From NCBI GenBank assembly GCA_002310235.1, contig DBYO01000024.1, positions 25,246 to 89,245 on the forward strand: 64,000 bases of DNA, given 5' to 3'. This document shows positions 7,035-64,000 of the stretch, piece after piece. The notes under the pieces are model-generated. The model saw nothing but the letters and a program-made list of their open reading frames with translations, did not search any database and was not told where the DNA came from. The DNA is from Bacteroidales bacterium UBA1184 (GTDB lineage: Bacteria > Bacteroidota > Bacteroidia > Bacteroidales > ML635J-15). The number at the start of each line of letters is the position of its first letter. Position 1 is the first letter of the stretch. A program made the position numbers and the translations under genes.

Positions 7035-7045
7035 CAAGTAAAATG

Positions 7046-9972: not shown

Positions 9973-9982
9973 CTTTCTTAAT

Positions 9983-24614: not shown

Positions 24615-24686
24615 AATAGGCGTTAACAAATAGATTAAAAATTAACACAAATAAAACCAACGAGCCTACGTATAATAAACTCGTTG

Positions 24687-25457: not shown

Positions 25458-25483
25458 GATGCGCAATATAACACTGTGCAAAT

Positions 25484-25570
25484 GTTGGAAAAACGGACAA
25501 AATATTTTGTTTTTGTGTTGGAAAAACGGACAAAATAGATTAATTTTGCGTTGGAAAAACAGACAAAATA
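25484..25570 (+). repeat. Three 21-nt direct repeats at exact 33-nt spacing (GTTGGAAAAACGGACAAAATA) ending at the ATPase start codon
   Basis: Units at 25484, 25517 and 25550. The third has one mismatch, and its last A is the A of the ATG. Confidence 0.9.
25541..25548 (+). promoter_or_regulatory. -7 box (TAnnTTTG) for the AAA_14/DUF4143 ATPase gene, between direct repeats 2 and 3
   Basis: TAATTTTG lies 22 nt before ATG 25570. Confidence 0.4.
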
Positions 25571-26952: not shown

Positions 26953-29900
26953 CTACTCCACCTTCACTCTTATTCCCGTGCTATGGCTCGTATATTCGGG
27001 TGCGTACATGCTCTGGATAGTCGTTATGCCATTCGAGAAATTACCCTTCTGCGTAGCGATAACCTGATACTCGAACACGTAGGTGCCCTTTGGCAGAATA
27101 TCGATGAAGAAGTTGATGGAAGCATCCTTAATTGCCTGATAGTAGCCCAACGAATGCTTGAACCTATAGCCCGAAAGTTTTTCGGTTGGCTCGAACGCCG
27201 AAGCACGCATATCCTTCAGATGAACATATTCCATGTTGCGGTCAACTTCGATTTCGATGCGGACTGTAACCCTGTCGCCTACCTTGAGGTTGGCATTCTT
27301 CTGCGTGATAGGCACAATGACTTCCGTGCCGTTCTCCACACGGTTGACAAACAAATCCTTGCGAATCTTAAGCGGGGTATCCTCGAAGCCCTTTATCTTG
27401 TCGATGTCCTCAAAGTACTGCCAGTAAATACCGCCCCAAGCCACAGTGCTGTCGGCTTTGGTAACCGAAACATCGCCCCAGGTGCTCGAAATCTCGTCCT
27501 GCTTCCACATTTTCTTGTAGTAGCCGGTGCCGTCCTCGGTAGTTTCGGCAGCAAGGTCTATCTGCTTATCACCAAGAGAAATTACCGGATAGTCGGTTTC
27601 GCTGAGGATGCTTGTACCGTCGAGCAAAAGTGCATAAACGGCTTCGGCAGTGGCCTTGGTGGTCTTCCAGTTGGTAGTCTGCTTCTGCTTCAACAGCCAG
27701 ACTTTCATTTCGTTGACATCGTGAACCTCGCCAATCTCATCGAAAAGTTCAATAAGCAAGGCCTGAGTCTCAATGCCACTGTTGTACCAATACCAACCGC
27801 GCTCCAAATCCCAATACATACCAAGTTCCTCGCTATGCTGTGCATACTCCTTCAACGATGCCACAATATCCTTCACTGTTGCTGTGCGATCGCTGCGCTG
27901 CATTGCCAAGGCAAGCATTCCGCGCATGTAGAAACCCCACGACGGCCAGTCCTTCTCGCCAAGCTTCATATACACATCGAAAACCTTCTGCGTGGATTTG
28001 TCCATAGGGTATTTCTTCAGGAAGAACGAACGTACATATAAATAATGTATCTGAGTGTAACCAAGAGCTACCGCATTGTACTTTTTCTGCAAATCATAAA
28101 TTCTCTCGATTTCCCTGTCGATGTACTTTACAGCCTTCTTAATCATGCCTTCCATCGACGAGTCTGGAAATTTTACACCGAGTTTCTGCAGATGTCCGTA
28201 GTTGCCAACAATGTGCTGGGTGACATATAGGTTGTCGGGCATTCCGTCGAACCACGGGAAACCGCCGTTTGCCTTCTGCATCTTCGACAGTTTGTCGGTG
28301 GCTTTCTTGGTTTCGTCCTTTATGCGGTCAATATCGAAAAGTACACCTATATTATATTTACGTTCAGCTTCGTTTTCGGCATCGAGAAGCCAAGGCGAAT
28401 TTTCGAGCAAAACAGATTTCAGTTCCTCGTTGCGCTGCAGGTTCGACTTCAGAGCCTCGGCATCGGTCGATTTCCACTTGTTGAACATTTCCTCAATCTT
28501 TTTGTCGGAATTTGCCACGTGCGAAGCAATGAGGTTGGAATAAATGCGCGAGAAAGTCTGTTCGGCACATTCGTATGGATATTCCATCATGTAAGGCAGT
28601 GCTAGCACGGCGTACCAAGCCGGATTTGGCGTAAATTCGAGGGTGTATGAGTAGTTTTCGAGTGATTTCGACTTGTTGTTCTTCATAGCGTTGAACGAAA
28701 AATGCGTTGTTCCGGCACGACGCACCGGCAAAGGCATTGTCTCGGTCACCATCATACGATTGGTAAGTATCGGCAACACTTTTTCCTCGCCGTCGGAATG
28801 ACCTTCGGCAATAGCAACAATGCGCACTGCCACCGCGCCAATGCTCTTCGGAACAGAAATTTTCCATTCTACAGAAGTGTTGCGGCTTGCATCGGCAGAG
28901 AATGTTACAATATTGTTTTTCAGGAATTTATCTGTAATATCCTCGGAATTCTGAGTGTTTATGAATTCGATTTTTGCCTTGCCGCTGATTGTGTTTTCGG
29001 TGAGATTTGCGATCTTGGCCGAAATGTACATTTCGTCGCCCTCGCGCATGAAACGCGGCAGGTTTGGCGTTACCGAGACATTTTTCTGAGTTACCAACGA
29101 ACTGCTTACATCGCCTATTTTCATGTCCTTGGTGTGGGCAAGTCCCATCACGTTCCAGCGTGTCATGCTTTCGGGCATTGTGAAATTGATGAAAATATTA
29201 CCGTCCTGGTCGGTGGTAAGATTGCTAGCGAAATAGGCTGTCTCGTTGAAATTGGTACGCACTTCGGCATTGTCGAAAGCTTCGGCTTCCTCTTCAGAGA
29301 GTTCCTCCTCCATTTCAACAGCCTCGTTGAGCGCAACGGCATCGGCGGCTATCAAACTGGACTCCTCTTCGACAACACCTCCGGCAGCATTGGCTCTATA
29401 GAGTACGCGCCCGCTCTTGTAATCGGTTGCGTACGACGAATAGTAAGCACTTAGCACATTGAAGAAAACCGGTGTGGGATAAGGAGTATATTCATAGCGG
29501 TTAGATGCATAGACATAGCGTCTGGAATTGCTGTTTGAGTATCCAAAACCCTTATATTCGAAATTGTAGTTCATCGTATTCGACGAATATGGCCAGAAAT
29601 ACCATGAGTGCGACTTGTACGAATCGAGCGAAGCATCATAGACTGTGGCTGCAAGTTCTGCTTCGATGGGTTTGTCGAACTTGTCGGTAATCTTCATCTG
29701 CCACGACTCCTCTGATCCCGGCAAGGTCTTGTCGCGGAAAGTCACCAACTTGACATCCAATTGCTTATCGACGCGCGAAACGCTTATGGTTTTGCTTTCC
29801 TTATATGCTCTGCCATGACGCACAAAGATCGCAGTGACAAACACATCACCGTAGCACTTTTCGGTAATCGGAATATCAAAGCTCTTAACCTCGTTGCTCA

Positions 29901-32811: not shown

Positions 32812-32845
32812 ATTCAAATTGATGTTTCAATGTTTATTATAAACG

Positions 32846-33552: not shown

Positions 33553-34854
33553 ATGGATCCCGACCCTTATAATCAATCGACAATAATAGGAATTATCGTT
33601 GTGGTAATTCTGCTCGTATGCTCCGGACTTGTTTCGGCAAGCGAGACTGGCTTTTTCGGACTTTCGGCAGGCGACAAGGAAAAAATCCGCAAGGCTAAGA
33701 CCGCAAAGGGAAAACTTATTGCAAAACTGCTGTCGAACCCCGAAAAACTGTTGGCTACAATACTTGTAGCCAACAATTTCATCAACATTGCAATAGTGAT
33801 AATCACAGCATTCCTGTCGGACAGGATTTTTGCCCACATCGACAATACAGTGCTCATAATTGTACTGCAAACCGTTGTCATTACATTCATAATCTTACTG
33901 TTCGGCGAGATGATACCAAAGATTCTGGCGGCAAAATATCCGCTGTCGATTTCAAAGTTAATGGCTTATCCTCTTTGGATACTCGAGCCGCTGTGCTTCC
34001 CGTTCAGCATAATCCTCATAAAATCGACCAATGCTGTAAAAAAACGTTTGCAGAAAAAGCACACTTCCGAAATCAGCATCGAAGACCTCTCGCAAGCCAT
34101 CGAACTTGCATCAGACGACCTTAAGGACGACCGCGAAATGCTTGAGGACATCGTCGCCTCTTCGTCGCTCGATGCCCGCGAAGTAATGACCTCGCGCGTG
34201 GATGTATTCGCCATCGAGTACGACTCAAAATTCTCGAAGGTAATTGGCGACATCGTGGAATCGGGATTTTCACGAATACCTGTTTACGAAGACAATCTCG
34301 ACAACGTCATGGGTATTCTTTACATCAAGGACGTGCTTGCCCATGTGGACGAACACGATTTCGACTGGCATAAGCTTATTCGTCCGCACTTTATTGTCCC
34401 CGAAACCAAGAAGATAAACGACCTTTTGTCCGACTTCCAGTCGAAGAAGATGCATATTGCAATCGTAATCGACGAATACGGAGGTGTGAGCGGAATTGTA
34501 ACGCTTGAGGACATCTTGGAAGAATTTGTGGGCGAAATTCACGACGAGTTCGATACCGACGAAGACATGTTCAAGAAGATTGACGACCGCACCTACGAAT
34601 TCGACGCCAAGACCAGCATTGTCGATTTCTGCAAAATTGTGAATGTTGACTACGAATTGTTCCAGGAAACAAAGGGCGAATCGGAAACTCTTGCGGGAAT
34701 GCTGCTCGAAATAAACCAGGAAATCCCAGCCAAGAACAAAACCATCAGCATCAAGGATTTTGATTTTACCGTAACGGCATCTAACGAGCGTAGAATAAAG
34801 AAGATACGTGTCAAACTGCCAAAAACTGAAAATACCGACACCGATGAAAAATAA
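33553..34854 (+). CDS. gldE: Gliding-motility/T9SS-associated protein GldE (DUF21-CBS-CorC)
   Basis: N-terminal DUF21 helices, a CBS pair, and a CorC/HlyC C-terminal domain (GIVTLEDILEEFVGEIHDEFD). Classic ssb-gldE-gldD neighbourhood. Confidence 0.85.
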   Translation: MDPDPYNQSTIIGIIVVVILLVCSGLVSASETGFFGLSAGDKEKIRKAKTAKGKLIAKLLSNPEKLLATILVANNFINIAIVIITAFLSDRIFAHIDNTVLIIVLQTVVITFIILLFGEMIPKILAAKYPLSISKLMAYPLWILEPLCFPFSIILIKSTNAVKKRLQKKHTSEISIEDLSQAIELASDDLKDDREMLEDIVASSSLDAREVMTSRVDVFAIEYDSKFSKVIGDIVESGFSRIPVYEDNLDNVMGILYIKDVLAHVDEHDFDWHKLIRPHFIVPETKKINDLLSDFQSKKMHIAIVIDEYGGVSGIVTLEDILEEFVGEIHDEFDTDEDMFKKIDDRTYEFDAKTSIVDFCKIVNVDYELFQETKGESETLAGMLLEINQEIPAKNKTISIKDFDFTVTASNERRIKKIRVKLPKTENTDTDEK

Positions 34855-35440
34855 GATTCTTGCTATAATACTAGTCGTAGGACTTGCGATGCTTTGCGCC
34901 TGTGGCGAAAAAGCTTACGCGCCACGTCCCAGAGGCTATTTCCGCATCGATTTTCCAGAGAAAACCTATAAGCAGTACAACGGCGAATGCCCTTTCACGT
35001 TCGAGATTCCAGAATATTCGTATCTAATAAAGGAGAAGGAAGACAATTGCTGGTTCGACATCTATTTCCCGAAGTACAAGGCAACAGTGTATTTGACCTA
35101 CCGTGGCATAGACAACAGCAAATACAGCGAAATAGACACACTGCTCAACGATGCCCACGACTTTGCATACAAACACACCATAAAAGCCGACGCCATTGAG
35201 GAAAACATTTTCGAGAAGGATTCGTCGCGGGTTTACGGATGCCTATATAACATCAAAGGGAATGTAGCCTCACAGGTACAGTTTTTCCTCACCGACAGCA
35301 CTACGCATTTCATGCGCGGCTCGCTATATTTCGAAGCACGCCCCAACAAGGATTCGCTTGCCCCAGTGGTCGATTTTGTCCGCGAGGACATCGAACATTT
35401 TATGGAGAGTTTTGAGTGGAAGGATTCAAAAATTCAATGA
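34844..35440 (+). CDS. gldD: Gliding-motility/T9SS-associated lipoprotein GldD
   Basis: MKNKILAIILVVGLAMLCACG lipobox and PRPRGYFRIDFPEKTY, typical of the GldD N-terminus. Overlaps the gldE stop by 11 nt. ATG at 34844 is chosen over the track start 34808. Confidence 0.75.
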   Translation: MKNKILAIILVVGLAMLCACGEKAYAPRPRGYFRIDFPEKTYKQYNGECPFTFEIPEYSYLIKEKEDNCWFDIYFPKYKATVYLTYRGIDNSKYSEIDTLLNDAHDFAYKHTIKADAIEENIFEKDSSRVYGCLYNIKGNVASQVQFFLTDSTTHFMRGSLYFEARPNKDSLAPVVDFVREDIEHFMESFEWKDSKIQ

Positions 35441-51446: not shown

Positions 51447-51496
51447 ATTCTGCACAAATCATTGCAAACCGGCGCAACGCATTGCGCCGCTACAAT
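51447..51496 (+). repeat. Left copy of the 50-nt direct repeat bracketing the RHS islet
   Basis: attcTgcacaaatcattgcaaaccggcgcaAcgcattgcgccGctacaat. 47 of 50 nt are identical to 63541-63590. Contains the hairpin GGCGCAA-cgca-TTGCGCC. Confidence 0.9.
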
Positions 51497-51716
51497 AATT
51501 GAAACATTGCGTACTGTCATGTTTGAAACATGATCCGACATAGAAACGCCGCAGGGGCGGATTACAAACCCACCCCTGCGTATTGTGATTGAGTATTATG
51601 CTGCATAGAATCGACTCGTGCCTACATCACATAGCATCTGCATTGACCTCTCATTTGTATTGCCTCTTACTATAACAGAAGAAAGTCTAACAAATTTCGT
51701 TTCGTATCTTTGATGT

Positions 51717-52331
51717 TCAATCCATAACTCTTTGCTCCTTATTAGCACGTTCTTTAAACCGCCCTTTCATAAAAATTTCCATACGCTTTTTCACTTCAAT
51801 AGAATCGTACACTTCCAATAATTTTTTTTCAAGATATTTTTGTGTGCTACTATCAGCCTCAATTCCAGAAATTCCATTCACAAAAATTGTGTCATTCAAT
51901 TTAATTAAAGGAATGTTTATGTAAAACCCGTTTATATTATCATTAATGCGAACAAAAAATAATCCAACACATTGTACCAAATCAACACTTGTGATATATG
52001 GTCTAATACTAATAGTTTCTTTCTTATCAAATATAGTATCTTGTAAAAATACTCTTTTTAAATTTTCCAATTCATAAGATTTGAAACACCTTTTTGATAT
52101 TGTATCATTTAAACCAAAAAGTTCTACATTTTTGACATATTTTTCATCCGCAGCGTATGATCCATAAGGTTTTGGTCTCATCGTATTCGGCCTCCATATA
52201 AGGTGAATTTTACTTACCCCGTTTTTATTTTTTTCCTTTCGCTGAGGATAAAAACTAGAGTAAAACCATGTAGGGCAGCAAGATGTTAATTGTAACAACG
52301 ATATAATTAGTATGAATTTTATTATCCTCAT
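51717..52331 (-). CDS. Lipoprotein, candidate immunity protein for the upstream RHS toxin
   Basis: Start ATG lies 1 nt after the RHS gene stop. Lipobox LLQLTSCC. AT-rich like the toxin tip. No recognisable family. Confidence 0.5.
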   Translation of the reverse strand: MRIIKFILIISLLQLTSCCPTWFYSSFYPQRKEKNKNGVSKIHLIWRPNTMRPKPYGSYAADEKYVKNVELFGLNDTISKRCFKSYELENLKRVFLQDTIFDKKETISIRPYITSVDLVQCVGLFFVRINDNINGFYINIPLIKLNDTIFVNGISGIEADSSTQKYLEKKLLEVYDSIEVKKRMEIFMKGRFKERANKEQRVMD

Positions 52332-52332
52332 A

Positions 52333-55300
52333 TTAATTATAAGTTTTTATAAATTGTTTTCTCTGATATACTTCACGGCACATTGCAGGATACTCACTCT
52401 TATAACAATTATTACGCAAATATTTACTTTGGAACAAATGCGTTTCTTCATGTGCACCATTACCATGAATATACTCCTCTATAGACCTGTAAGGGTGCAT
52501 TTTATCAAACTTTTCTAATCCAGAATCTCTATATGCATCACTATAAACATCATTTCTATCGCTATTTCCACTCAAAACATTACTAGGATCAGCCGATATA
52601 TCTGTAGAACTACCATCTGGATTTATTAATATAGAACTAGAATAATCGTTGTCTTTTTTATCGCCAAAGTAATATGTCGAGATATAAATATGATTGTTTT
52701 CAGCAATTCCAGGTATTCTAGAGTACCCATTAGTTTCACCATCGTTATCTTCGATAAACATCGGTTTATCTGTAACATGTATATAAAACATTTTCCTTGA
52801 TCTTAGCATTCTCATAACGCCACGAGTTCCGCATTTTGTTAGAGTTCTTGCATTAATATATCGTTCGGTACCACGATCTTTCGCTTCTTGAGAATATTCA
52901 AATTTTTTAGTCTTTTTATTGTAAGTCACTCCATCTATCTTCCTTCCATCCGGGTCTCTAAGCATTATCGGATTTCCAGCGCAATACATATACGGGCTCA
53001 TGCTCGGATACTTGTCGCTCATCGGGTCCACACTAAGCCACATCATAATATTGTCGGTGTAGTATCGTGCGCCAAAGTAATTGTAGCCACTTTCGCTATC
53101 CTTTTCCTTTGCAGAGAAGGTGTAGGGGGATACATATCTGTCTCTGTGCTTGTCAACAAGAACTTCTCCGTATGGCATATACTGCAGGTACTGGTAGAAC
53201 TCGCCATGGTGGTTGGTAAGTGCCGATACGCTGCCCTGGTGGTTGTAGTGGTAGTAGAACTTTACAGGATCGAAATGAACATAATTGCCGCGGGCATATA
53301 CAATATCGCCTCTGTAGCCGACAGAATCAAGAGCATGCTGAACCTGCTTTCTAAGTCCGTAAATGAATTCTCTTTCGGTTCTGTTGTTTATTACTTCTAC
53401 CCCACTAGCATAATAATCACGTTCGGCAAAAGGAACGATCTCAGTACAAATTCTCTCTTCACCAACAAAGTAGTGCTTGTAAAGGCTACGATTGTCAATT
53501 GTTATTTGCTGTGTAGGATAGAATGTCTTGTCAAGTTCAATATCGCGGTTCATTAGCCTTTCGTTTCTATAGGCGTCAGTAACCATTCCCGAGAACTTCC
53601 ATACACGTTCGCCATCGGCATCATACAGATATGCAGCAACAGCACCTCTACCGCTTGGACGGGACATTTGACGTCCGTTTTCATCAACCATCCTGTCGCT
53701 TATTGCAGCAAGGCGGTTTTCCTCGTTGAAGTAAAGTTCGCGGACTTCTGGTCGCGGCGCCGCTCCTGGGACTATACATCTTTTTATATTGCCGTTGGCA
53801 TCCCATAAATATTTATTTGGACCAATTTTTGTCACAGCGTGAGGTTTCTGTGGATTTTCGTACGCATAGCCGTCCCTACGGTCGAAAACAGACACTTCCC
53901 CGTCTATATTATTGTGACCATTAAGAATATAGTCTCTTATATTTCCTGCCGGAGAATACGACATCTCAAAATGGTAACCAGCATCTATACCATTACTACG
54001 ACCATCAGATTTCACAAGACGATTGAGATTGTCGTACATGTACTCATAGCTGTACTGGAAATCGCCATCATTGCTTATGCCTACGATATTATAAACATCG
54101 TCATATTGATAGTGTATATCTTGTAAAACACAACCATCGCCGGCAAAACTACTCATATGCTCCAACTGCAGACTGAGCTCGTTGTATTCATAGCGATTGT
54201 ACGCACCGTTACCGTATTTACAATTGATGCGGTGGCCGTACTTGTCGTAACGAATATCGCCAACTATAATTTCTTCGCGCGAGTTCATATTGGACGAAAT
54301 CATACTCTCAAGTTTTCCAGCATTATCGTACCTATATCTAACAGTTTCACCATCGGGATATGTCATGTCCATAATACGTCCCCAGGTATCATACGTCCAC
54401 ATAGTCTTAAAAAGCATTAATTGTCCGTCTGGCATTGCAAAGGTACGAATATCTTTCACAATATCTCCCATTTCGTTGTAAAAATATTCTTGTACGCGCA
54501 CTCCGTCCTGGCGTTTGGTTACAAGACCAGCGCTCATTCCGTCGTTGATTCCTCCGTACTCGTAGTAAACGTCCATCTCTGAATTATTGGGGTAATGTAT
54601 CTCCTTAAGCCTGTCACCCATGTAAACGTAGTTTACTTCTTCACCCCTATTCTCCAACTTCTGGGTAACCTTACTAATAAGGTTGCCATTACTATAGGTA
54701 TAGCTTGTGTGTCCTGCATCGGGATGATAGCGAGAAACAAGACGTCCGAGCATATCGTAATAATATTTAGTACTATTATCCTCTGGATCAATACTTGCTA
54801 CCAACTCGCCCATCGGAGAATATATAAACTTAGTGGTTATACCGTCCGACTCGCTTGCCTGTTTTGTAGTGGTCTGCAATCCGCGGGAATCGGTATAGGA
54901 CATTAGTTCCCTGCCGAGCGGATCGCGAGTTGTTACAAGCATTGCCAATTGTCCCAATGCATCCTCCGATACATCATACGATTTTTCAATAAACTTTCCA
55001 TCTGGAGTTATTGTAGTCAAAACACGATCCATGCAGTCGTAGGTATATTTAGTAGGATTTTCAAACGAAGTTTGCAGGAATCCATCATCTTCTGTATTAA
55101 CAGTCACCTCGGCTGGCTGATAGCTTCCTACTACTCGGCCGTAATCGTCGTAAACATTCTTACCCGAAGCTACAAACTTTTCTACTCTGTCCACCACCGA
55201 CTTGCGTGCAGTCTGCATAGTTCGTCCAAGACCGTCGCATACCGTCTGCGTTACAAAGGTATTGCCTCTATTAATTGCATCTTTATGTATAACTCTTGCC

Positions 55301-58300
55301 CAACGTGGAGAACGGTTTCTCAATTCGTCCCAATATTTGAACTTCAGCGAATATTCCTGATCCATTGGACCTGTAATAGTATTTATTTTACCATCGGAAT
55401 AATAAGTATATACCATTCTTGTTCCGTTAGGAGCTGTAATTACTGTGGGTTTTCCAAACCTATAATCGTAACCTTCCAAAGTTGTGTTCAACCAGGCCTC
55501 TGTCTGATTTTGGTCGTTTATAAAATTCACCCCAATATTCGAAAGGTAAGTATGGGTCGCATCGTCGTAAGTATATATATAAAACATACGGTTCGGATAT
55601 GTAACCCCTATCAGATTTCCATTAGATTCTTCATAAGTGTACATGGTACTTTCCCATGTGTTTTCTGTAACAAAATTTCTGACCTGGAATATTTTACCGT
55701 TTTCGGTGTACTCGCGCTCAAACTTTCTTAAAAGCTGATTATCAGCCGACTTGACAGTCATTTCTGACATCATATCCAACAAGTTCTTGGTTCTATTAGG
55801 AACATAGGTCATTTCAGCCTTTACATATTCATCGGGTCGGTAATTATTGGTGTAACTTGTAATATTTCCGTATTTACCATACTTATAGTGCTTTACCGAA
55901 ACCAATTCATTCGAACCATAAACGATAGTCTGTTCCGACTCCAAGCGAGGATATACCTCCTGCTCACTACCACATTCATAGTCAGCCACTACTTCTCCTG
56001 TATTCAAGTCGTTGAGGGTCCAGTTATAGTCGGTACTTGTCTGCAAAACATCTCTAGCATCAAGAACTTCATCCCTGTATTTCAGTCCGTGACGCAATCC
56101 GTTTTCGGTAATGTAATATTCCTTTTGCTTTCTTAGCTCTTCAGAATTATCATGATTAACAATTCTAGTTGTCACTTCGGCAAATCCGTAGCTTTCGCGC
56201 TCAATGCGGTGATACTTCATGCCTGAATATTCAAATTGGTAATGTAAGTAGTCGCTACCATCTTCGAAATCTCCATCGTTATCGAGTACCGTCAATTCCG
56301 ACATCAACCATTTGCTGTGAGGATTATCTGCATTAGGATACAATAGAGAATACGAGATTTCGTATTCGCCAAAAGCGGGAGTTGTAACCTTCTTAAGGAT
56401 ATCGCGCCTCATCGGCTTTCCGTACTTTACAGAAGCACTCCTATTAACAAAATTCAATATATCAACAGCGCCGTCACCGTTTATATCCATCACTCTTGTC
56501 TTCTCTTTGCTAATGGTATATAGGAAGTCTGCGTATAAGCTTGCCGTTACTTTTAGGTTCTCTACAGGGAAGCCAACACTTCCTGAACCATTTACAGAAA
56601 TATTATGTGTGTGGTTATTAGACAAATCACTGTCAAAATTATTAACAGATATTGGCATTGCATAAAATCCTCTTCCATTGTTATAATAAACATTTATTCC
56701 ACTACCGTTTTTCTCAACAATGTCAACTAAACCATCCGAATTAATATCCATCATTGTGGCATTGTCAAAACTCTTATTACTATTCACATTTATGCCACCA
56801 GAAAACGAGAAATTGCTCGTATTATAACTCATTGGTAATGGTAAGAACTGCCACAAATTATTTAAAAGATCTAATAAGCTCGAATTGCTTTTATTAGAAG
56901 AAACATGACCTGGTGTAATAGATATAGGATATCGTTTAGAGAACTTGTATCCCATATTGTACTCCACATAATATCTGTCTTCATCATCATTGAAAGTTAC
57001 AATATCGGGCAGACCATCGGAATTGACATCTATATATGAATCTAGTACATTGTTTTCAGAAGCACTTGTATTTAGACCCATTGACGGAATATTCATTTCC
57101 GTAGATTCTGGACTTGTTCCCTTTCCCTTGATAATATTTGGTTTAAAAGAAATAGACCCTCCGTTTGATTTGCCTTTGCTGTAACTTGTATATACATCCT
57201 CGTGCTCATCGGCAAACCTTAAAATATTGTTAGACATGTCGCCATTGGGCAAGGTATATTGTATTTGTCTTATTCCAACAATATCGGGATAACCGTCGCC
57301 ATTCATATCCATCATATCGCTAAAGCCTTTTGTCCAAGTATTAGTGTGGTTGTACCCTATCTGATTACTACTTATAACAGCGAGAGAGGCTGAGAACGAA
57401 AGATTCTGTGTTTTTGACACTTTGTTTACTACAGGGAAGTGTCTAGAACCTAATGGATCATCAAAATTAGGCAATGCATCGCCATGCTCGGCAAAACCAT
57501 CAGAGTCTTGCTGCATATTTTCAAATTCATGCCTTGCATAATCCAAACCTATACCGCTACCAATAGAGCCATATACAGGATCAGGTTGCTGATTGGGAGC
57601 TGCGTTATGATTAGGCTTAACAAAAGCACTTCTAAACGGATCCATCCACCTTTCATTGCTCAAGTCGGTCAACATTGGCACAAACATGTGCATAAGTGGA
57701 TACTCCGACAGGGGACCATTGTTTACATAGTCTTCCAAATTCTGAGCATAATCGTCATTTTGATGATTAGAATTAGACTGACGTACTAGTCTGGTAAGAC
57801 TAGGATCTCCTGTTATATTATTTAATTCATCCTCAGTAGCATAAATTTTGTCGAAGTTGAATAAATGGAATGGTATTGCTTCGTAAGGATATATCTCAGC
57901 TACTCCGTCAGGAGTAATTCCTTCTTGAACATCAACTGGAGTCTTTACTATCAAAGTGTCCAAATAAGAGAACTGGCCCCATCCGCGATACATATTTCCA
58001 CCCATATATATCTTTTTAGCAGGATGTTTTGCATAAAGACCAGCAAAGTAACTTAATGGTACATTACTGCTAGCATTGCGGACTGCAACTTTGCTATTTG
58101 CATAATAATCATACTCTTCGTCATCTTCGGCAAACTCACTATTAATATTTTTAATTGTGTAATCGAAATATACATTATAAAAATCTCTTCCTCTAGGCAA
58201 AGTGAAAGACAACTCTTCTTGCCCATTTAGAAGCAACCTTTTGACTTTATTCTGGTTCAAAGTCTTTACTGTTAAATATATTTCCGCATCTTGATTGTTG

Positions 58301-61300
58301 CTGCGAAGATGGTTCACCAATTCAGAATTGGGAGTCACAATATAGCGTCCAGGCCTCAAATTATATGGTCGCGACATACATAATTGATTGGAGTATATGC
58401 TCATATTGAGTGAGGGATGATATGTTTCCCTATCCTGAACATTCTCACCGACATATTTAACGCTACTAGAAAACGAAATGTCGCTCCAATCGACATTACT
58501 GTTCGACCGCAATTCGAAAAGCAATTGGTCTTGTTCAGCGACAGGAAGAGATGCATTAATTATTTCAACAGATGGTATATCCTGCACGTTATCGTTGCTA
58601 AGGAAGATCTCACTATATTCTTCTAGAACCACGCGAGTGTAAGTATCATCATCGTTGTGTTTATTATGAACTACAAAAAATTCCAAGGTATCGCTCTTGG
58701 GTCTCGTAGCATGAAGGGATACCGAGAAATTCACTTCACCGTCAAAAGTTGAATAAAATGCGCTTCCATCCTGTACTACCGCATCAGCATTGTACTCATA
58801 ATGCAACAATGGCTTATCATCGGCATCAGTGCTATTTGCACCAATCTGTCCAACATAATTTACTATTTGTTGTGGGGTATGCTCATCTATAAGCGGATAT
58901 CGAGGGATTATCTCAATACTAAATGCATTAAAGATATCAATAGTCTCTTCACTATTAGAATGAACATGAAATAATATGTGTCCATCTTTGGGAATAAATA
59001 CATTATATTCATGTATTCCACAATCCTTATAAAATCTAGCATCCTGAAATGGGTATTCTTCACTATAAAACAGAAGGCTATCGGCTTTATATACATTATA
59101 TCCCATGACACATGATCCTCTAGTTCCATATTCATCGTGAGTATAGTCTGCAACTTTAAAATATATATGGAAAGGATGTCCCATTGGTAACGGATTTCTC
59201 CACAATACCACAGCATCACGCTTAGCTTCTTTTTTGTCAGGTTCCATACTCATATCAACATTGCCATCATACTCAAACTTATAGCATTGGTCGTAACGAG
59301 ATCTTTGTTCAGGATCATTCTCCCAATCTGTAAATTGTGGGATTCCTTCATTATCGGGGAAATTGATATATACAGTATTGCCAGAAACAAAATCTACAAA
59401 TCCATCCCCATTTACATCCAAGAAATAATCCGAATTTATTGTCTTTGTCATAGAATAGTTGCCACCTATCTGACCTTTGACAAACTGATTGAAAAACAAC
59501 TCGATACCTACGCTATTTGTTTTACTTGCCGATTTACCAAGTCTAGGTATGGTAAGCGAATGTGGTCTATCTACAAACGACACATAATTACCATCGCTTA
59601 TATAACCTTTGTAAAATTTAATAATATCTCCATTTTTTTCTACGCGGTCAACAACGCCATCGCCATTAAGGTCGATAATCTGAGTTTTCTGGTTGTTGAT
59701 ATCGTAAGAATAATGATAATTGACACCTATTGAGTTATTTTTGAGCATTGGCATAGCATCAACAAAACCAACGCTAGCGCTTCCTCCCACATTAATGGCA
59801 TAACTCGTATTCTTGCTAAGGTTAGACAATTCTTCTGTCTCTTCAACTTGACTACCATACACAACGGCCGGTTCTCCTACAGACATAGACAATGGTGTTC
59901 CTTCTTCAAAAGAAATCTCGTCATCCGAGAAATAATCGAAAGTATGTACATAAAAGCCTTGTCTCTGAATATCATCAAAATTTTGGTTTTCCATACCAGG
60001 ATCGGTAATTTCAGCTATTGCCACAAGTCTCCTTTTCGGCAAATTGCCATGATTCTCATTAAGAGAACCAGCCACTTCATACTTGAACCTATAACATTTT
60101 ACAAAATTGTTATCATAGGTAACCGTTATTTTCGAAAGCATTCTCATATCCGAAGTAAAGAATCCGTAGTTCGCCAATAATGAAGGGGTAACAGGTGTTT
60201 CATCATATTCAAATATCACATGGTATTTACCTGCCTCCAATTGCTGGTCTTCATATTCCCTTGATGTATATATTATTTCCGAAACTCGCATTTGCTTAGC
60301 CAATGGACGCAGTCCTAGCATAGACTCATCTTCAGTTTCTGTTTCTATATCATAAACATATTCTACAGTGTTTCCATACAGGTCTTTCATTTTAGCCAAT
60401 CCCCATACTGCGATGTTGTCATCAGGGTCATCGCCAGCCAACGAGAATCTTAATGCGGTATTTTCTTCCTGTACTTTGTCACCATAAATGTAATTAACAC
60501 CATTGCGGTCTGTTACTTCCCACCAATAGTTTTTCGGAGAGTCTCCGTGTCGCTTTATTTTATCAAACTTACCCTCGTTCAGATATGCATATGTCTTTTC
60601 TGCACCTCTCTCTCCTCCTCTTTCGACATACAAAGGTTTGTGGCGTGTAATTATTGTAGTATTAGGATCTTCCTCCGACTCTACTATAGCCTCACCGTTC
60701 ACAAGGTACGATTCTGACTCTACATCGGCCGAATATAGAGGCACACCCCAGCGGGTATCAACCGTTATGCTCGGGATGCTGAGGCTCCAGCCGGGACCCA
60801 TAAATCCGTCCTTAACGTCGCTGCTGTACGAAATGGAAATCTGCGGCGCCATACCGTTTCTTCCTGCCGGTATCTGTATGGGGTAGTTCATAGAACAATT
60901 TCCACTATTGTTGGCTGTAGGAGCCTGCATTATGGTCATTCCCTCCAGTGGATTTGCATACTCTATGCCTCGTATGCTTGTGTTAGCATAACCGCTTGCA
61001 TCGGGAATTTCGGGCTGAGTAAGAATTCCATTTATAAAATCGGTAAAATGATCGGTACTGGTCACCACAAGCTGGTGCTTGTGATCGATGCTGTCGATAG
61101 GCATGCATACCCACTGCGACTGATCTTCATCGTAGAAGAACGTCCTTATATCGTCGGGACGATAACCTGCAGGAATGAGCGAGGTGTCGTATCCTATGCT
61201 CAACTGCAACGGCTTGTTGAACTTTCCGTGAGGAAGACAACGGTAACCTCCGTAAGTTGAGGTTACGTTTACCAGACCGTAATCGAGTTCGGGCAACTCA

Positions 61301-61644
61301 TTGCCGCGCAAACCACGAACGGTTAAGTCCTTTTCGGAACTTACTGCTCCCATAGGAATCTCCAGAACAATGCTTCCTGCCGAAATCTTACATGCTTCCA
61401 AACTTGATATTTTCCTCTCTATAAACAGAATTGCATCTGACGATTCTGCGTCAAATGCATCTGTATTTCCATAATTCTCACTTGATTTGTCATCGGCACT
61501 TTCCATACCAGATGGATCTGCCATAGACTTACTCAAAAAATCATACTGCAATTCTGCAGATTTGCTCGATATTCTGTGCAACGAAATACCAAGCGATAAA
61601 ACAATGATACCTACTATAATAGGTATAATGACCTTATTATTCAT
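52333..61644 (-). CDS. SpvB / FG-GAP / RHS-repeat protein (Tc-toxin TcB-TcC-like fusion) with polymorphic C-terminal toxin
   Basis: 3103 aa with an N-terminal TM helix (IIPIIVGIIVLSLGISL). SpvB-like GMAPQISISYSSDVKDGFMGPGWSLSIPSITVDTRWGVPLY (~60730-60882). Six DxNGDGxxD loops and a TcdB-middle-like YHRIERESYGFAEV. Many YD repeats (e.g. YTYDCMDRVLTTITPDGKF, YYYDMLGRLVSRYHPDAGHTSYTY). RHS core end SVDPMSDKYPSMSPYMYCAGNPIMLRDPDG. Confidence 0.9.
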   Translation of the reverse strand: MNNKVIIPIIVGIIVLSLGISLHRISSKSAELQYDFLSKSMADPSGMESADDKSSENYGNTDAFDAESSDAILFIERKISSLEACKISAGSIVLEIPMGAVSSEKDLTVRGLRGNELPELDYGLVNVTSTYGGYRCLPHGKFNKPLQLSIGYDTSLIPAGYRPDDIRTFFYDEDQSQWVCMPIDSIDHKHQLVVTSTDHFTDFINGILTQPEIPDASGYANTSIRGIEYANPLEGMTIMQAPTANNSGNCSMNYPIQIPAGRNGMAPQISISYSSDVKDGFMGPGWSLSIPSITVDTRWGVPLYSADVESESYLVNGEAIVESEEDPNTTIITRHKPLYVERGGERGAEKTYAYLNEGKFDKIKRHGDSPKNYWWEVTDRNGVNYIYGDKVQEENTALRFSLAGDDPDDNIAVWGLAKMKDLYGNTVEYVYDIETETEDESMLGLRPLAKQMRVSEIIYTSREYEDQQLEAGKYHVIFEYDETPVTPSLLANYGFFTSDMRMLSKITVTYDNNFVKCYRFKYEVAGSLNENHGNLPKRRLVAIAEITDPGMENQNFDDIQRQGFYVHTFDYFSDDEISFEEGTPLSMSVGEPAVVYGSQVEETEELSNLSKNTSYAINVGGSASVGFVDAMPMLKNNSIGVNYHYSYDINNQKTQIIDLNGDGVVDRVEKNGDIIKFYKGYISDGNYVSFVDRPHSLTIPRLGKSASKTNSVGIELFFNQFVKGQIGGNYSMTKTINSDYFLDVNGDGFVDFVSGNTVYINFPDNEGIPQFTDWENDPEQRSRYDQCYKFEYDGNVDMSMEPDKKEAKRDAVVLWRNPLPMGHPFHIYFKVADYTHDEYGTRGSCVMGYNVYKADSLLFYSEEYPFQDARFYKDCGIHEYNVFIPKDGHILFHVHSNSEETIDIFNAFSIEIIPRYPLIDEHTPQQIVNYVGQIGANSTDADDKPLLHYEYNADAVVQDGSAFYSTFDGEVNFSVSLHATRPKSDTLEFFVVHNKHNDDDTYTRVVLEEYSEIFLSNDNVQDIPSVEIINASLPVAEQDQLLFELRSNSNVDWSDISFSSSVKYVGENVQDRETYHPSLNMSIYSNQLCMSRPYNLRPGRYIVTPNSELVNHLRSNNQDAEIYLTVKTLNQNKVKRLLLNGQEELSFTLPRGRDFYNVYFDYTIKNINSEFAEDDEEYDYYANSKVAVRNASSNVPLSYFAGLYAKHPAKKIYMGGNMYRGWGQFSYLDTLIVKTPVDVQEGITPDGVAEIYPYEAIPFHLFNFDKIYATEDELNNITGDPSLTRLVRQSNSNHQNDDYAQNLEDYVNNGPLSEYPLMHMFVPMLTDLSNERWMDPFRSAFVKPNHNAAPNQQPDPVYGSIGSGIGLDYARHEFENMQQDSDGFAEHGDALPNFDDPLGSRHFPVVNKVSKTQNLSFSASLAVISSNQIGYNHTNTWTKGFSDMMDMNGDGYPDIVGIRQIQYTLPNGDMSNNILRFADEHEDVYTSYSKGKSNGGSISFKPNIIKGKGTSPESTEMNIPSMGLNTSASENNVLDSYIDVNSDGLPDIVTFNDDEDRYYVEYNMGYKFSKRYPISITPGHVSSNKSNSSLLDLLNNLWQFLPLPMSYNTSNFSFSGGINVNSNKSFDNATMMDINSDGLVDIVEKNGSGINVYYNNGRGFYAMPISVNNFDSDLSNNHTHNISVNGSGSVGFPVENLKVTASLYADFLYTISKEKTRVMDINGDGAVDILNFVNRSASVKYGKPMRRDILKKVTTPAFGEYEISYSLLYPNADNPHSKWLMSELTVLDNDGDFEDGSDYLHYQFEYSGMKYHRIERESYGFAEVTTRIVNHDNSEELRKQKEYYITENGLRHGLKYRDEVLDARDVLQTSTDYNWTLNDLNTGEVVADYECGSEQEVYPRLESEQTIVYGSNELVSVKHYKYGKYGNITSYTNNYRPDEYVKAEMTYVPNRTKNLLDMMSEMTVKSADNQLLRKFEREYTENGKIFQVRNFVTENTWESTMYTYEESNGNLIGVTYPNRMFYIYTYDDATHTYLSNIGVNFINDQNQTEAWLNTTLEGYDYRFGKPTVITAPNGTRMVYTYYSDGKINTITGPMDQEYSLKFKYWDELRNRSPRWARVIHKDAINRGNTFVTQTVCDGLGRTMQTARKSVVDRVEKFVASGKNVYDDYGRVVGSYQPAEVTVNTEDDGFLQTSFENPTKYTYDCMDRVLTTITPDGKFIEKSYDVSEDALGQLAMLVTTRDPLGRELMSYTDSRGLQTTTKQASESDGITTKFIYSPMGELVASIDPEDNSTKYYYDMLGRLVSRYHPDAGHTSYTYSNGNLISKVTQKLENRGEEVNYVYMGDRLKEIHYPNNSEMDVYYEYGGINDGMSAGLVTKRQDGVRVQEYFYNEMGDIVKDIRTFAMPDGQLMLFKTMWTYDTWGRIMDMTYPDGETVRYRYDNAGKLESMISSNMNSREEIIVGDIRYDKYGHRINCKYGNGAYNRYEYNELSLQLEHMSSFAGDGCVLQDIHYQYDDVYNIVGISNDGDFQYSYEYMYDNLNRLVKSDGRSNGIDAGYHFEMSYSPAGNIRDYILNGHNNIDGEVSVFDRRDGYAYENPQKPHAVTKIGPNKYLWDANGNIKRCIVPGAAPRPEVRELYFNEENRLAAISDRMVDENGRQMSRPSGRGAVAAYLYDADGERVWKFSGMVTDAYRNERLMNRDIELDKTFYPTQQITIDNRSLYKHYFVGEERICTEIVPFAERDYYASGVEVINNRTEREFIYGLRKQVQHALDSVGYRGDIVYARGNYVHFDPVKFYYHYNHQGSVSALTNHHGEFYQYLQYMPYGEVLVDKHRDRYVSPYTFSAKEKDSESGYNYFGARYYTDNIMMWLSVDPMSDKYPSMSPYMYCAGNPIMLRDPDGRKIDGVTYNKKTKKFEYSQEAKDRGTERYINARTLTKCGTRGVMRMLRSRKMFYIHVTDKPMFIEDNDGETNGYSRIPGIAENNHIYISTYYFGDKKDNDYSSSILINPDGSSTDISADPSNVLSGNSDRNDVYSDAYRDSGLEKFDKMHPYRSIEEYIHGNGAHEETHLFQSKYLRNNCYKSEYPAMCREVYQRKQFIKTYN
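52336..52938 (-). other. C-terminal variable toxin domain of the RHS protein (201 aa after DPDGRK) with HExxH motif
   Basis: DPDG is encoded at 52945-52956. HEETH is encoded at 52438-52452, near the C-terminus (GNGAHEETHLFQ). The region is visibly more AT-rich than the adjacent RHS shell. Confidence 0.6.
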
Positions 61645-61661
61645 AACTTTATTTTATTTTT

Positions 61662-63269
61662 TTAATATACAACTATTGTCTTCGAAAGTTTGTCGGCTGC
61701 CGTACTTACTTCTATCAAGTATGTACCAGACATTTCAATATGCTTCTTTACCTCATAATGCTTCAATCCATCAATCTTGCTGTTCCAGATAAGCTTACCG
61801 TCAACACCAACTATTCTAATGTTGAATTTCTGTGCATCGGCGAGGTCAACGGTAACAACAAAATCACCATAGCATGGATTCGGGAAAACATCAACTCCCA
61901 TTATCCTTGTATCAATGCTTCCGTCCAATCTTGAATCGGAATTGTTATGTCCACCATTTCCAGTATTGTCATTTCTACCAAAATCGCTATTGGTATAACC
62001 GTCTGCAGCTTCTGCAATTTCTTGCTCTATCTGCTCTTCCAGAACTTTGTCAACGAATACCGTACCGAAACTGAATCTGTCGAACCCACTACCGTCGGTA
62101 TCCCATTTTATATTATTATAGTAATAATAGCCATCTGCATCTGCCGAATCGGGAGCAAAAGTCTCCATTTCACCTGGCATATATGTAAGACTGTCGGTGC
62201 GAACTATGAAAAGATTCGGAGCAAGAGTATCGGAAAGATTTTCGTATTTCAACTTCAGGTTTACTGGCATCATATGGAAATCTTGTCCAATGGTGGCGAT
62301 TTTCCACTCTTTAAGCGACCTTACATAAAATTCTGCATTACGTCCAGAATATATGGTGTCGGCTGTTGAACTTAACGATTCTCCATTGCTGGTTACTACA
62401 AGGTAATTGCCATCTTTAAGGACAACCTCGTTTTTCCTGTTGCTTTCGCGCAGGTTACCTACATATATTGCGAGCTCAGAAGATGCACAATTGGCACCGC
62501 ACTGTTTCTGGTGTACTCCATAACCATCGTCGCGGCATAGCACTGCCATTTCGTAGGGATACTCCGAATTTTCTTCGTAACGCCATATAGTGTCGTTTGC
62601 AGAATTTATAAGATCAAGGCCCTGCACTGTTATGCTGTGCTTCATCACAAGGTAACTATAAACCTTGCAAATATCAAGAGCATCAATTTGCTTGTCAAAA
62701 AACATGAACTCGGAAATCTTTCCGCAAAACTGTGTACTGTCGTCTCCAAACAATTTAACATGCGAATCGTCGCTTATTTCAAGCCCAGCCCACTTGTCCA
62801 TGTATAAATTTATCACCGCCGACGCAATAGTCGTGTCGGCAAATGTTATCAGACGACCACTGCGCTTACGCAATGTCTGAGTTGTAAAATGTATGTTCTC
62901 AATCGAATCCGGCACAATAGCCCATAATGTGGAAGGCGATTTGCTACCGGTTGGTTCGTAAACAACAAACACATTAATGTCCGAATTACGTTTCATCTTG
63001 TATGGTACAAGCAAACCCTTTTCGCCATTCTTATACGAAATGCACGGGTTGTAATTCATAAAACCGTCGGCCTTAGATTCAAAAATAACCTTATCACCTT
63101 TTTCGCTCTTCGACAACAGTTTTACAATACTGTCGTTGTCCGAAACCGCTTGAACCCAGACACTGGGAGTTAACAAGCCTTTCTGTGCATAAATAGATGC
63201 ACTCGATAACAGCATAATTGCTGTAAACACGCAATAATAAAAACGCAATGTTTTTCTGTATGCCCTCAT
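61662..63269 (-). CDS. T9SS-sorted secreted protein with LamG-like region, first gene of the RHS operon
   Basis: Signal peptide (AIMLLSSASIYAQ). KISEFMFFDKQID is LamG-like. Gly/Asn/Asp-rich linker. C-terminal T9SS type-A domain (VFPNPCYGDFVVTVDL...GTYLIEVS...TIVVY). 17 nt upstream of the RHS gene. Confidence 0.75.
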   Translation of the reverse strand: MRAYRKTLRFYYCVFTAIMLLSSASIYAQKGLLTPSVWVQAVSDNDSIVKLLSKSEKGDKVIFESKADGFMNYNPCISYKNGEKGLLVPYKMKRNSDINVFVVYEPTGSKSPSTLWAIVPDSIENIHFTTQTLRKRSGRLITFADTTIASAVINLYMDKWAGLEISDDSHVKLFGDDSTQFCGKISEFMFFDKQIDALDICKVYSYLVMKHSITVQGLDLINSANDTIWRYEENSEYPYEMAVLCRDDGYGVHQKQCGANCASSELAIYVGNLRESNRKNEVVLKDGNYLVVTSNGESLSSTADTIYSGRNAEFYVRSLKEWKIATIGQDFHMMPVNLKLKYENLSDTLAPNLFIVRTDSLTYMPGEMETFAPDSADADGYYYYNNIKWDTDGSGFDRFSFGTVFVDKVLEEQIEQEIAEAADGYTNSDFGRNDNTGNGGHNNSDSRLDGSIDTRIMGVDVFPNPCYGDFVVTVDLADAQKFNIRIVGVDGKLIWNSKIDGLKHYEVKKHIEMSGTYLIEVSTAADKLSKTIVVY

Positions 63270-63295
63270 AAATTTATCGTTTTAATGTTCGTGTG

Positions 63296-63303
63296 CAAAA
63301 ATA
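63296..63303 (-). promoter_or_regulatory. -7 box upstream of the T9SS-partner/RHS/immunity operon
   Basis: CAAAAATA on plus equals TATTTTTG on minus, 27 nt before ATG 63269. A very AT-rich ~240-nt tract lies upstream. Confidence 0.4.
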
Positions 63304-63540
63304 TTTTATTTTCATTAACATTACTAAACAATATTTTTACATTATACTTTATCAGAAAATTTTTTAAATATTATAGATAAGAATTTATATAATATGCAAA
63401 ATTGAGTGTTCGAAAAATTTGTTAAAGGACTACCTTTTCAAAAGAAATAAAACATAAACGTACAATATTTACAATTTTAGAATAACGAATTACATTTTTT
63501 TAGAATTGGATCTGTGTGCGGATGCAATATTTTGCGTCTC

Positions 63541-63590
63541 ATTCAGCACAAATCATTGCAAACCGGCGCAGCGCATTGCGCCTCTACAAT
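63541..63590 (+). repeat. Right copy of the 50-nt direct repeat bracketing the RHS islet
   Basis: attcAgcacaaatcattgcaaaccggcgcaGcgcattgcgccTctacaat. Confidence 0.9.
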
Positions 63591-63673: not shown

Positions 63674-63690
63674 CACAAAAATATTTGCTG

Positions 63691-64000
63691 ATGAACTTTT
63701 TGTCGAAAACCATTATTTTTGCAGCTTGCCTCTGCGCTACAACTGCATTCGCACAGGTTCCCGCCGGATACTACAACTCCACTCGCGACCTCTGCGACGA
63801 AGAACTGCGGCAACAACTACATACAATAATCAAAAATCACCTGGAACTTGACTACACTCAGTTGTGGGCAAAATTCCACCAAACCGACATGCGCAACGGA
63901 GATACTATTTGGGACATATACTCCGACTGCACTTTCATATACTCCGCCGATCAGTGTGGAAACTACAGCGAAGAATGCGACTGCTACAACCGCGAACACT
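63691..64000 (+). CDS. Extracellular endonuclease I family protein (3' end outside window)
   Basis: My own translation from ATG 63691: MNFLSKTIIFAACLCATTAFAQVPAGYYNS...LRQQLHTIIKNH..LDY..LW......D.....IWDIYS......DQCGNYSEECDCYNREH. This is the Endonuclease_1 N-terminal pattern. The frame stays open to the window end. Confidence 0.7.
   Translation, partial: MNFLSKTIIFAACLCATTAFAQVPAGYYNSTRDLCDEELRQQLHTIIKNHLELDYTQLWAKFHQTDMRNGDTIWDIYSDCTFIYSADQCGNYSEECDCYNREH

Follow-up and report, generated by a model that had tools for sequence, protein, structure and literature searches.

A single-chain SpvB-propeller-RHS toxin gene and its T9SS-tagged DUF8202 partner in a Bacteroidales genome: a conserved gene pair with a possible role in interbacterial antagonism

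The locus described here lies in a 64,000-nucleotide stretch of the genome of Bacteroidales bacterium UBA1184 (the window, on which all positions without a locus prefix are numbered). It consists of three co-directional genes on the minus strand. Gene 1 encodes a secreted protein of the DUF8202 family that ends in a type IX secretion system (T9SS) sorting domain, gene 2 encodes a giant polymorphic toxin with a shell of SpvB, propeller and RHS modules, and gene 3 encodes a candidate immunity lipoprotein. The open reading frames (ORFs) of 535, 3103 and 204 amino acids (aa) are separated by 17 nucleotides (nt) and 1 nt, respectively, exactly as in an initial annotation made from the sequence. The features of the locus are collected in Table 1. 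Those that go beyond the initial annotation are the N-terminal domain ending in HFTDFIN, the insertion of ~690 aa in the propeller, the HExxH toxin tip, and the promoter box and hairpin.

Table 1. Features of the three-gene locus, in window coordinates
Feature	Position	Strand	Basis or remark
Promoter box of the Bacteroidetes -7 type, TATTTTTG, matching TAnnTTTG (candidate)	63296..63303	-	27-34 nt 5' of the gene 1 ATG
Gene 1, 535-aa secreted DUF8202 protein with T9SS type-A C-terminal domain	61662..63269	-	Conserved partner of the RHS gene
Predicted Sec signal peptide, aa 1-28 (...SASIYA/QKG)	63186..63269	-	Translation; cleavage site inferred
DUF8202 region, ~aa 30-410	62040..63182	-	Precomputed PF26628 and alignments A1-A3
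T9SS type-A C-terminal domain, aa 456-535	61665..61904	-	Pfam, TIGR04183, AlphaFold2, Foldseek
Gene 2, polymorphic toxin of 3103 aa (SpvB-propeller-RHS) with a fused TcB+TcC-like shell	52333..61644	-	
Hydrophobic helix at the N-terminus, aa 5-22, either a Sec signal or a signal anchor	61579..61632	-	Translation
Conserved N-terminal domain, aa ~80-207, ending DHFTDFIN; putative ZU5-type autoproteolytic	61024..61407	-	
SpvB/TcaC N-terminal shell domain, aa 246-464	60253..60909	-	PF03534, E 2.5e-21; YenB and SpvB PDB matches
FG-GAP blades 1-2, aa ~640-754 (DLNGDGVVD, DVNGDGFVD)	59383..59727	-	AlphaFold2, pLDDT ~90
β-rich propeller insertion of ~690 aa, aa 755-1440, motif MYRGWGQFSY	57325..59382	-	
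FG-GAP blades 3-6, aa ~1441-1735	56440..57324	-	Loop motifs, Pfam FG-GAP_3
TcdB_toxin_midN segment, aa 1710-1827, containing YHRIERESYGFAEV	56164..56517	-	PF12256, E 2.6e-8
YD/RHS-repeat shell, aa ~1830-2821	53182..56157	-	Pfam RHS_repeat, TIGR01643, NF041261
Rhs-associated core, aa 2822-2900 (...WLSVDP...NPIMLRDPDG)	52945..53181	-	TIGR03696, E 1.8e-16
C-terminal toxin domain, aa 2901-3103, HEETH and downstream Glu; predicted zinc metallopeptidase	52336..52944	-	
Gene 3, 204-aa candidate immunity lipoprotein, lipobox LTSC	51717..52331	-	1 nt after the toxin stop
Terminator-like hairpin, 14-bp stem with 9 GC pairs	51550..51580	-	137 nt 3' of the gene 3 stop

The initial annotation had likened the gene 2 product to the TcB and TcC subunits of an insecticidal Tc toxin (the BC cocoon) fused in one chain, and the family matches bear this out, since the SpvB, FG-GAP, TcdB-mid, RHS and Rhs core families follow one another in that order. 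The N-terminal hydrophobic helix, the six propeller loops, the TcdB-mid segment and the RHS core end were all recovered, and homologs of the protein likewise begin with signal-like segments. Among the sequences in the PDB, the best match was TcdB2-TccC3 (E = 2e-24) followed by YenC2/YenB; further matches were teneurin-like proteins and type VI secretion system (T6SS) Rhs proteins (Tse5). The Tc BC subcomplexes of Photorhabdus (TcdB2-TccC3) and Yersinia entomophaga (YenB-YenC2) share the order SpvB, propeller, TcdB-mid, YD/RHS, core and variable toxin; however, they are made of two chains rather than one, and gene 2 adds an N-terminal signal or anchor with a ZU5-like domain as well as the propeller insertion. 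The setting also differs from that of the Tc complexes: a TcA gene is missing from the neighborhood, a DUF8202 protein with a T9SS tag takes the place of the conserved partner, and antibacterial tips are found in relatives.

For gene 1, a signal peptide and a T9SS type-A sorting domain had been proposed, and both are supported by the analysis. In addition to the signal peptide evident in the translation, residues 461-534 match Por_Secre_tail (PF18962, E = 1.6e-6) and the TIGR04183 model, whose cutoff is 23 bits, gives a score of 32.5 bits. An AlphaFold2 (AF2) model calculated from an alignment of 23 sequences has a mean predicted local distance difference test (pLDDT) score of 54.8, with the last ~80 residues at ~85 and the N-terminal part below 50. 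A helix is placed at residues 2-30. The modelled C-terminal domain (CTD) was searched with Foldseek and identified 8gl8_D and 8gl6_D (probability 1.0, TM 0.70-0.71, rmsd 2.9), which are the CTDs of the substrates RemA and RemZ bound to the SprA translocon.

The region that precedes the sorting domain belongs to DUF8202 (PF26628). As the PF26628 model is not part of the local Pfam copy, this assignment consists of precomputed matches, which exist for the identical database protein and for all of its relatives. The motifs YLxxKYG and NNIxWDTDGSG are conserved in the family (alignments A1-A3). Nothing was found to confirm the LamG-like region proposed in the initial annotation: Pfam gave no match at E ≤ 10, and Foldseek returned only generic Ig, FN3 and β-sandwich folds. 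Given the low confidence of the N-terminal part of the AF2 model, LamG was neither confirmed nor excluded by fold. DUF8202 proteins range from ~420 to more than 1200 aa, with extra β-rich regions. A subfamily of ~422 aa has no Pfam call for a CTD, yet its members end in a CTD-like strand (...SYKLISK), and one of them is named a T9SS type-A sorting protein by NCBI. No mention of DUF8202 was found in the literature.

The pairing of DUF8202 with the giant RHS gene is conserved across Bacteroidota. A DUF8202 relative of only 23% identity lies directly upstream of a 2766-aa SpvB-RHS gene, and the pair is also present within the species of the window. When genome contigs were searched with the DUF8202 alignment, four loci were obtained (the source genome was not among them), from Marinilabiliales, Bacteroides, Saprospiraceae and Flavobacterium; in all four, a giant RHS homolog starts no more than 40 nt downstream. 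The arrangement is repeated in three of three contigs of the P0182 subfamily, and a search that started from the RHS protein led to Apibacter and three more loci with DUF8202 immediately upstream. For metagenomes, 79 loci were recovered by means of the HFTDFIN domain, 61 of which have at least 3 kb of upstream sequence. DUF8202 is present upstream and on the same strand in 51 of these 61 loci, or in 51 of 56 when only contigs with a GC content below 0.6 are counted, and 45 of the 51 also match the CTD profile. The linkage of the 535-aa protein to SpvB/RHS genes, on which the initial annotation had staked its reading, is therefore strong in both directions. The module as a whole is large, with at least 576 metagenome stretches matched and 232 protein clusters.

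The 10 metagenome loci without DUF8202 comprise five high-GC contigs, two tandem RHS arrays lacking their upstream end, the locus L057, where another Por_Secre_tail protein is encoded upstream, and two others. A metagenome-assembled genome labelled Thermodesulfobacteriota also has no DUF8202 partner. The T9SS is confined to the Bacteroidota/FCB group; thus, the absence of DUF8202 from the high-GC relatives and from the Thermodesulfobacteriota genome indicates that the partner tracks the T9SS. The broader statement that the partner is absent from monoderms was dropped, as the identity between the high-GC loci and the Nonomuraea protein is no more than ~35%, which leaves the taxon of these loci unsettled.

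Two variant layouts were also encountered. In the first, two tandem genes of ~240-250 aa that resemble OMP_b-brl lie directly upstream of a ~422-aa DUF8202 gene, which is followed by the RHS gene (L012:335-3054, L014:3212-5963, L015:3239-5984 and L095:8527-11275). These genes may represent a dedicated outer-membrane component. In the second, which may be called a double shell, a long DUF8202 gene is followed by a shorter SpvB/TcdB-mid/RHS gene (1430-1690 aa) and then by an RHS toxin of ~3100-3500 aa (L031:2254-19120, L082:141-19501, L084:1842-19207, and also L032, L034, L059, L085 and L088). In eight of the metagenome loci, an additional SpvB-RHS gene of shorter length intervenes, so that DUF8202 lies two genes upstream.

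In the propeller of the gene 2 protein, the six D-x-N/S-x-D-G-x-x-D loops, at residues 658, 743, 1446, 1539, 1633 and 1720, are divided two and four by the insertion. At the profile level, this insertion is retained in 122 of 122 homologs, one from Nonomuraea among them, with the motif FGxLYRGWGQF. It has no Pfam match even at E ≤ 10. AF2 modelled the propeller with its insertion at a mean pLDDT of 72.9; the insertion is predicted to be mostly β, and its core reaches 85-95. A Foldseek search of the insertion against the PDB gave nothing at E ≤ 1e-3 and only weak matches to β-sandwich and jelly-roll folds. Relative to a 98%-identical allele (L001:11626-20937), 26 of 49 substitutions fall in the insertion, which makes up 22% of the protein. 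Thirteen are clustered in aa 1275-1292 and six in aa 1421-1429, with a second cluster in aa 2746-2819. Such clustering is suggestive of local recombination, or of an exposed surface under diversifying selection.

The N-terminal domain that ends in HFTDFIN is present in 120 of 120 database homologs. Half of these (60/120) have the motif [DN]HF[ST], and alignment A5 shows no variation at H139, F140 and D142. The single sequence has no Pfam or NCBIfam match at E ≤ 10, and a profile of the domain found no match among the PDB sequences. ZU5 is the sole Pfam family matched by several members of the domain (4 of 19, best E = 0.045). Domains of the ZU5/UPA type autocleave at HF/S. By its motif, the domain of gene 2 is a putative autocleaving domain of the ZU5 type, with a predicted cut at HF/T between aa 200 and 201.

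At the other end of the shell, the Rhs core retains two aspartate motifs, WLSVDP and RDPDG, and a profile of the region matches TccC3, YenC2 and Rhs cores in the PDB. Paired aspartate motifs form an autoprotease in TcC and Rhs proteins. By analogy, the core is predicted to act as an aspartyl autoprotease and to release the toxin within the shell.

The toxin tip that follows the core has no match in Pfam, NCBIfam (both at E ≤ 10 for the single sequence, the Tox-MPTase models included) or the PDB. Pfam scans of each member of the tip alignment gave nothing consistent, and the tip profile matched only an Rhs-core remnant in the PDB. Among 1.84 billion representative sequences, the tip family has 45 clusters, and the domain is C-terminal in every case. 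Across 25 sequences, the HExxH motif and a glutamate 15 residues after the second histidine (alignment positions H165, E166, H169 and E184) show no variation. From this pattern, the tip is predicted to be a zinc metallopeptidase of a small undescribed family. Many short proteins with the tip still carry remnants of the Rhs core and hence look like displaced orphan tips.

Homologs of gene 2 have the body in common and diverge after the DPxG cleavage motif. The C-terminal families found among them are Peptidase_M23, GH108 with PG_binding_3, Phage_lysozyme2, TseH-like, Ntox21, Toxin-JAB1, Peptidase_M91, DUF6973 and DUF5675. In the closest relative from another species (P0010, with a partner of 68% identity), the tip is another domain, with the motif HELGH. 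Since several of the tips degrade peptidoglycan, the family may be regarded as an antibacterial polymorphic toxin system with targets in the cell envelope. A periplasmic target is indicated by these peptidoglycan-directed tips together with the lipobox of gene 3. The interbacterial, periplasm-directed action proposed in the initial annotation is thus upheld at the level of the family by the Peptidase_M23, GH108, phage-lysozyme and TseH-like tips.

The amino terminus of the gene 3 product, MRIIKFILIISLLQLTSC, carries a lipobox (...LLQLTSC). No Pfam or NCBIfam family was matched at E ≤ 10. In other assemblies the gene is started at Met51, which gives a protein of 154 aa. In three further contigs of the species, the gene is found together with that of the toxin. 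The residues that follow the lipobox cysteine are not acidic; given the signals for surface export in Bacteroidota, this suggests a lipoprotein that faces the periplasm.

The three genes are bracketed by the promoter box and the hairpin, and plausibly form a single transcription unit. TAnnTTTG is the Bacteroidetes promoter consensus. With 72 matches in the whole window versus 62 expected, the motif is not enriched, so that the promoter call is one of position alone.

The operon is flanked by housekeeping genes (purN, fabF, rnc, lpxC and lpxA), and the GC content of the locus (~0.38-0.42) is not atypical for the window. As the initial annotation had noted, there is no TcA-like gene at the locus: neither a TcA-sized gene nor a T6SS gene is present in the 64 kb, and the flanks of related loci also lack a gene of TcA size. 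The only other giant ORFs of the window encode a T9SS cargo protein of 2828 aa and an alpha-2-macroglobulin. The former (16143-24629, minus strand) has GEVED, Big_2, Listeria-Bacteroides repeat, P_proprotein and Por_Secre_tail domains and is flanked by two ATPase genes at 13953-15077 (minus strand) and 25459-26919 (plus strand), with ATPase_2/AAA_14 and AAA_14 plus DUF4143 domains, respectively. The latter (1954 aa; 26953-32817, minus strand) has MG2, A2M_BRD, A2M and bMG10 domains, and on the opposite strand an ORF of 372 aa overlaps it.

A gene for the gliding-motility lipoprotein GldD at 34808-35440 (plus strand) fits a host of the T9SS/gliding type; together with the other CTD proteins of the window or contig, it is an indirect sign of a T9SS. 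The 64-kb window showed neither SprA nor PorV. Upstream of the operon and divergent from it, a T9SS-tagged Endonuclease_1 gene with Por_Secre_tail (~63690-64000, plus strand) runs off the end of the window; assemblies of the same species show a divergent Endonuclease_1 plus Por_Secre_tail gene in this place (L001:8515-9579). Secreted nuclease genes, either Endonuclease_1 or Endonuclease_NS, are also found near the module in L012 and L095, possibly by coincidence. Further away, one MBOAT gene and two AlgX-like SGNH genes (5682-9990, minus strand), along with an Acyl_transf_3 gene (4094-5662, plus strand), look like a polysaccharide O-acetylation system.

Several known systems provide a basis for comparison. 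WapA of B. subtilis and the T6SS Rhs proteins Tse5 and RhsA consist of an RHS shell, a core autoprotease and a C-terminal toxin with downstream immunity, and serve in interbacterial competition. Unlike the T6SS Rhs toxins, the locus encodes no PAAR/VgrG-binding N-terminus and has no T6SS genes nearby. In contrast to WapA, the host here is a diderm, so that an outer membrane has still to be crossed. Genomes of 'Ca. Ornithobacterium hominis' contain displaced tips and an rhs gene, longer than 9 kb, in which signatures of SpvB and TcdB are found.

The TcdB/TcaC class was defined by Zhang 2012 (PMC3482391) in terms of a signal peptide, SpvB, an integrin-like propeller, RHS and diverse C-terminal toxins; ZU5 is described there as often N-terminal to SpvB, and Bacteroidetes members as well as metallopeptidase tips are listed. 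With its signal, SpvB, propeller and RHS body and the variable tips of its relatives, gene 2 fits this published architecture. The DUF8202/T9SS partner and the propeller insertion do not appear in the passages of that text on TcdB, SpvB and TcaC, and the HExxH tip differs from the listed toxins in having no match to a Pfam family, the Tox-MPTase models included.

The association with the T9SS also has a precedent. Steele & Moran 2021 (PMC8125069) reported that SpvB/TcdB-Rhs genes of Apibacter adjoin genes for proteins with a T9SS type-A sorting domain and proposed an association with the T9SS. An Apibacter locus examined here had a DUF8202 plus Por_Secre_tail gene directly upstream of the SpvB-RHS gene, which is the same pair as here. 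It differs in that Apibacter belongs to another order of Bacteroidota, its partner has 1025 aa rather than 535, and its tip is a different one; that paper contains neither a family-wide quantification nor a mechanism. Similarly, Jana, Salomon, Bosis 2020 (PMC7073777) found that the neighborhoods of TANFOR toxins are enriched for proteins with a T9SS CTD and hypothesized T9SS-dependent export. Like gene 2, TANFOR toxins are polymorphic and lack a CTD, have Sec signals and are accompanied by neighbors with a T9SS CTD. Their N-terminus and repeats, on the other hand, are unrelated, there is no RHS shell, and the neighbors are CTD proteins with SprB repeats rather than DUF8202. The initial annotation's view that such a delivery route is not characterized therefore stands with respect to experiment; its novelty falls in so far as the class (PMC3482391) and the T9SS adjacency (PMC8125069) are in print. 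What the window contributes is the HExxH tip; the family-wide linkage counts, the insertion in the propeller and the N-terminal HFTDFIN domain are contributions of the analysis, but no new principle emerges.

On balance, and with modest confidence, the locus may be read as a chromosomal toxin operon of the TcdB/TcaC class, of a kind belonging to T9SS-bearing Bacteroidota, in which passage across the outer membrane or retention on it is coupled to the DUF8202 protein and no TcA is involved. The toxin precursor would be exported by Sec and cut off its membrane anchor at HF/T by the ZU5-like domain, after which the aspartyl protease of the Rhs core would free the toxin domain within the closed shell. 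Having no CTD, the shell would rely on the DUF8202 partner to cross the outer membrane, or to be retained on it, by way of the T9SS. The partner might work through the SprA translocon, in the role of carrier or adaptor, or might instead anchor the shell at the surface. Upon contact with a competitor, the metallopeptidase would be released into the envelope of the target, and protection of the producer would fall to the gene 3 lipoprotein on the periplasmic side. A TcA translocator would play no part.

A number of points weigh against this reading. It is from gene order alone that a T9SS dependence of the shell may be inferred. The literature search found no experimental study of T9SS-dependent Rhs delivery, and no precedent for piggy-back transport by the T9SS that would suit an RHS protein without a CTD of its own. 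A folded shell of ~340 kDa might not fit the T9SS translocon, and the two small OMP-like barrel genes of one subfamily hint at another route across the outer membrane. Since the AF2 fold of the DUF8202 region is of low confidence, it gives no structural clue to binding. The ZU5 membership of the N-terminal domain, at its best E-value and with no PDB sequence match, is weak. The absence of TcA and T6SS genes covers the 64-kb window, and such genes may be present elsewhere in the genome.

The immunity gene is a further point on this side. The RHS protein of L033:9731-18943 has a homologous HExxH tip (57% identity, E = 1.7e-65); however, metG follows the toxin gene 158 nt later, and the stretch before it (L033:18944-19100) contains no ORF, only a hairpin and a TAnnTTTG box. 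This lack of a downstream immunity gene is unexplained if the toxin is harmful to its producer, and it makes the assignment of gene 3 uncertain. From position alone, an immunity role for gene 3 is plausible. Of the initial proposal of an immunity lipoprotein, the lipobox and the adjacency to the toxin hold, and the protein is still a candidate with regard to its role.

A more specific version of the mechanism can be put forward tentatively. According to this version, the DUF8202-CTD protein would be a dedicated T9SS carrier or adaptor that brings the folded ~340-kDa shell, itself without a CTD, over or onto the outer membrane, in a form of contact killing, widespread among Bacteroidota, that depends on the T9SS and on neither TcA nor a T6SS. 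The propeller insertion would be a module for docking or for binding a receptor.

Somewhat doubtful, yet to be taken seriously, is the alternative that the DUF8202 protein is secreted independently by the T9SS and serves at the surface as a dock, an adhesin, a receptor-binding subunit or a trigger for opening of the shell, standing in for the receptor part of TcA, while the RHS shell leaves the cell through small outer-membrane proteins (OMPs), in vesicles or by lysis. The conserved pairing is explained equally well in this manner. The cell surface is where cargo with a type-A CTD is usually displayed, and the spread in length of DUF8202 proteins, with their β-rich extras, is reminiscent of adhesins. 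One subfamily has the two extra OMP_b-brl-like genes in its operon; in the window, by contrast, an OMP-barrel hidden Markov model matched no ORF and the operon has no OMP genes. An alternative route across the outer membrane is also unsupported. The 17-nt spacing and the fixed order of the genes are those expected for a complex formed before export, though they are not decisive.

It is very improbable that gene 2 encodes a true Tc BC subunit that acts on eukaryotic cells with a TcA pentamer encoded elsewhere, the T9SS protein and the lipoprotein being unrelated to delivery. TcdB2-TccC3 and YenB/YenC2 are indeed the best matches of solved structure, orphan TcC or BC genes apart from TcA are known (Song 2021), one homologous toxin locus has no immunity gene, and some relatives carry Peptidase_M91, which Pfam describes as "Effector protein". 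Against this, no TcA-sized gene was found among ~100 related loci examined, any more than in the window; the genes are instead linked to DUF8202-CTD at a rate of 84-91%, and the propeller, which in Tc toxins docks to TcA, is interrupted by the insertion. Many relatives bear peptidoglycan hydrolase tips that would be useless against eukaryotes, and there are loci with arrays of immunity genes and with orphan tips.

Equally improbable is an RHS protein that is never delivered and stays in the inner membrane or periplasm of the producer as an abortive or altruistic toxin or a structural protein, with the gene order reflecting co-regulation, for although there is no clear signal-peptidase site after the N-terminal hydrophobic helix and secretion is so far undemonstrated, the autocleavage-like HFTDFIN motif right after the anchor argues for release, variable C-termini and orphan tips are hallmarks of polymorphic toxins, and the allelic variation focused in the propeller insertion suggests an exposed, interacting surface.

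The DUF8202-coupled reading bears on the question of how Rhs shell toxins without a T6SS or TcA leave diderm cells and enter their targets. The use of the T9SS as an antibacterial weapon is still a hypothesis (Jana 2020; Steele & Moran 2021). Because the module has well-defined parts (CTD, HFT motif, propeller insertion and Rhs-core aspartates) and is carried by cultured Apibacter, Flavobacterium and Prevotella, the T9SS-Rhs hypothesis can be tested genetically. If the DUF8202 protein were truly a carrier of the shell, hitch-hiking export via the T9SS would be seen for the first time, and this system would gain a defined role in interbacterial antagonism.

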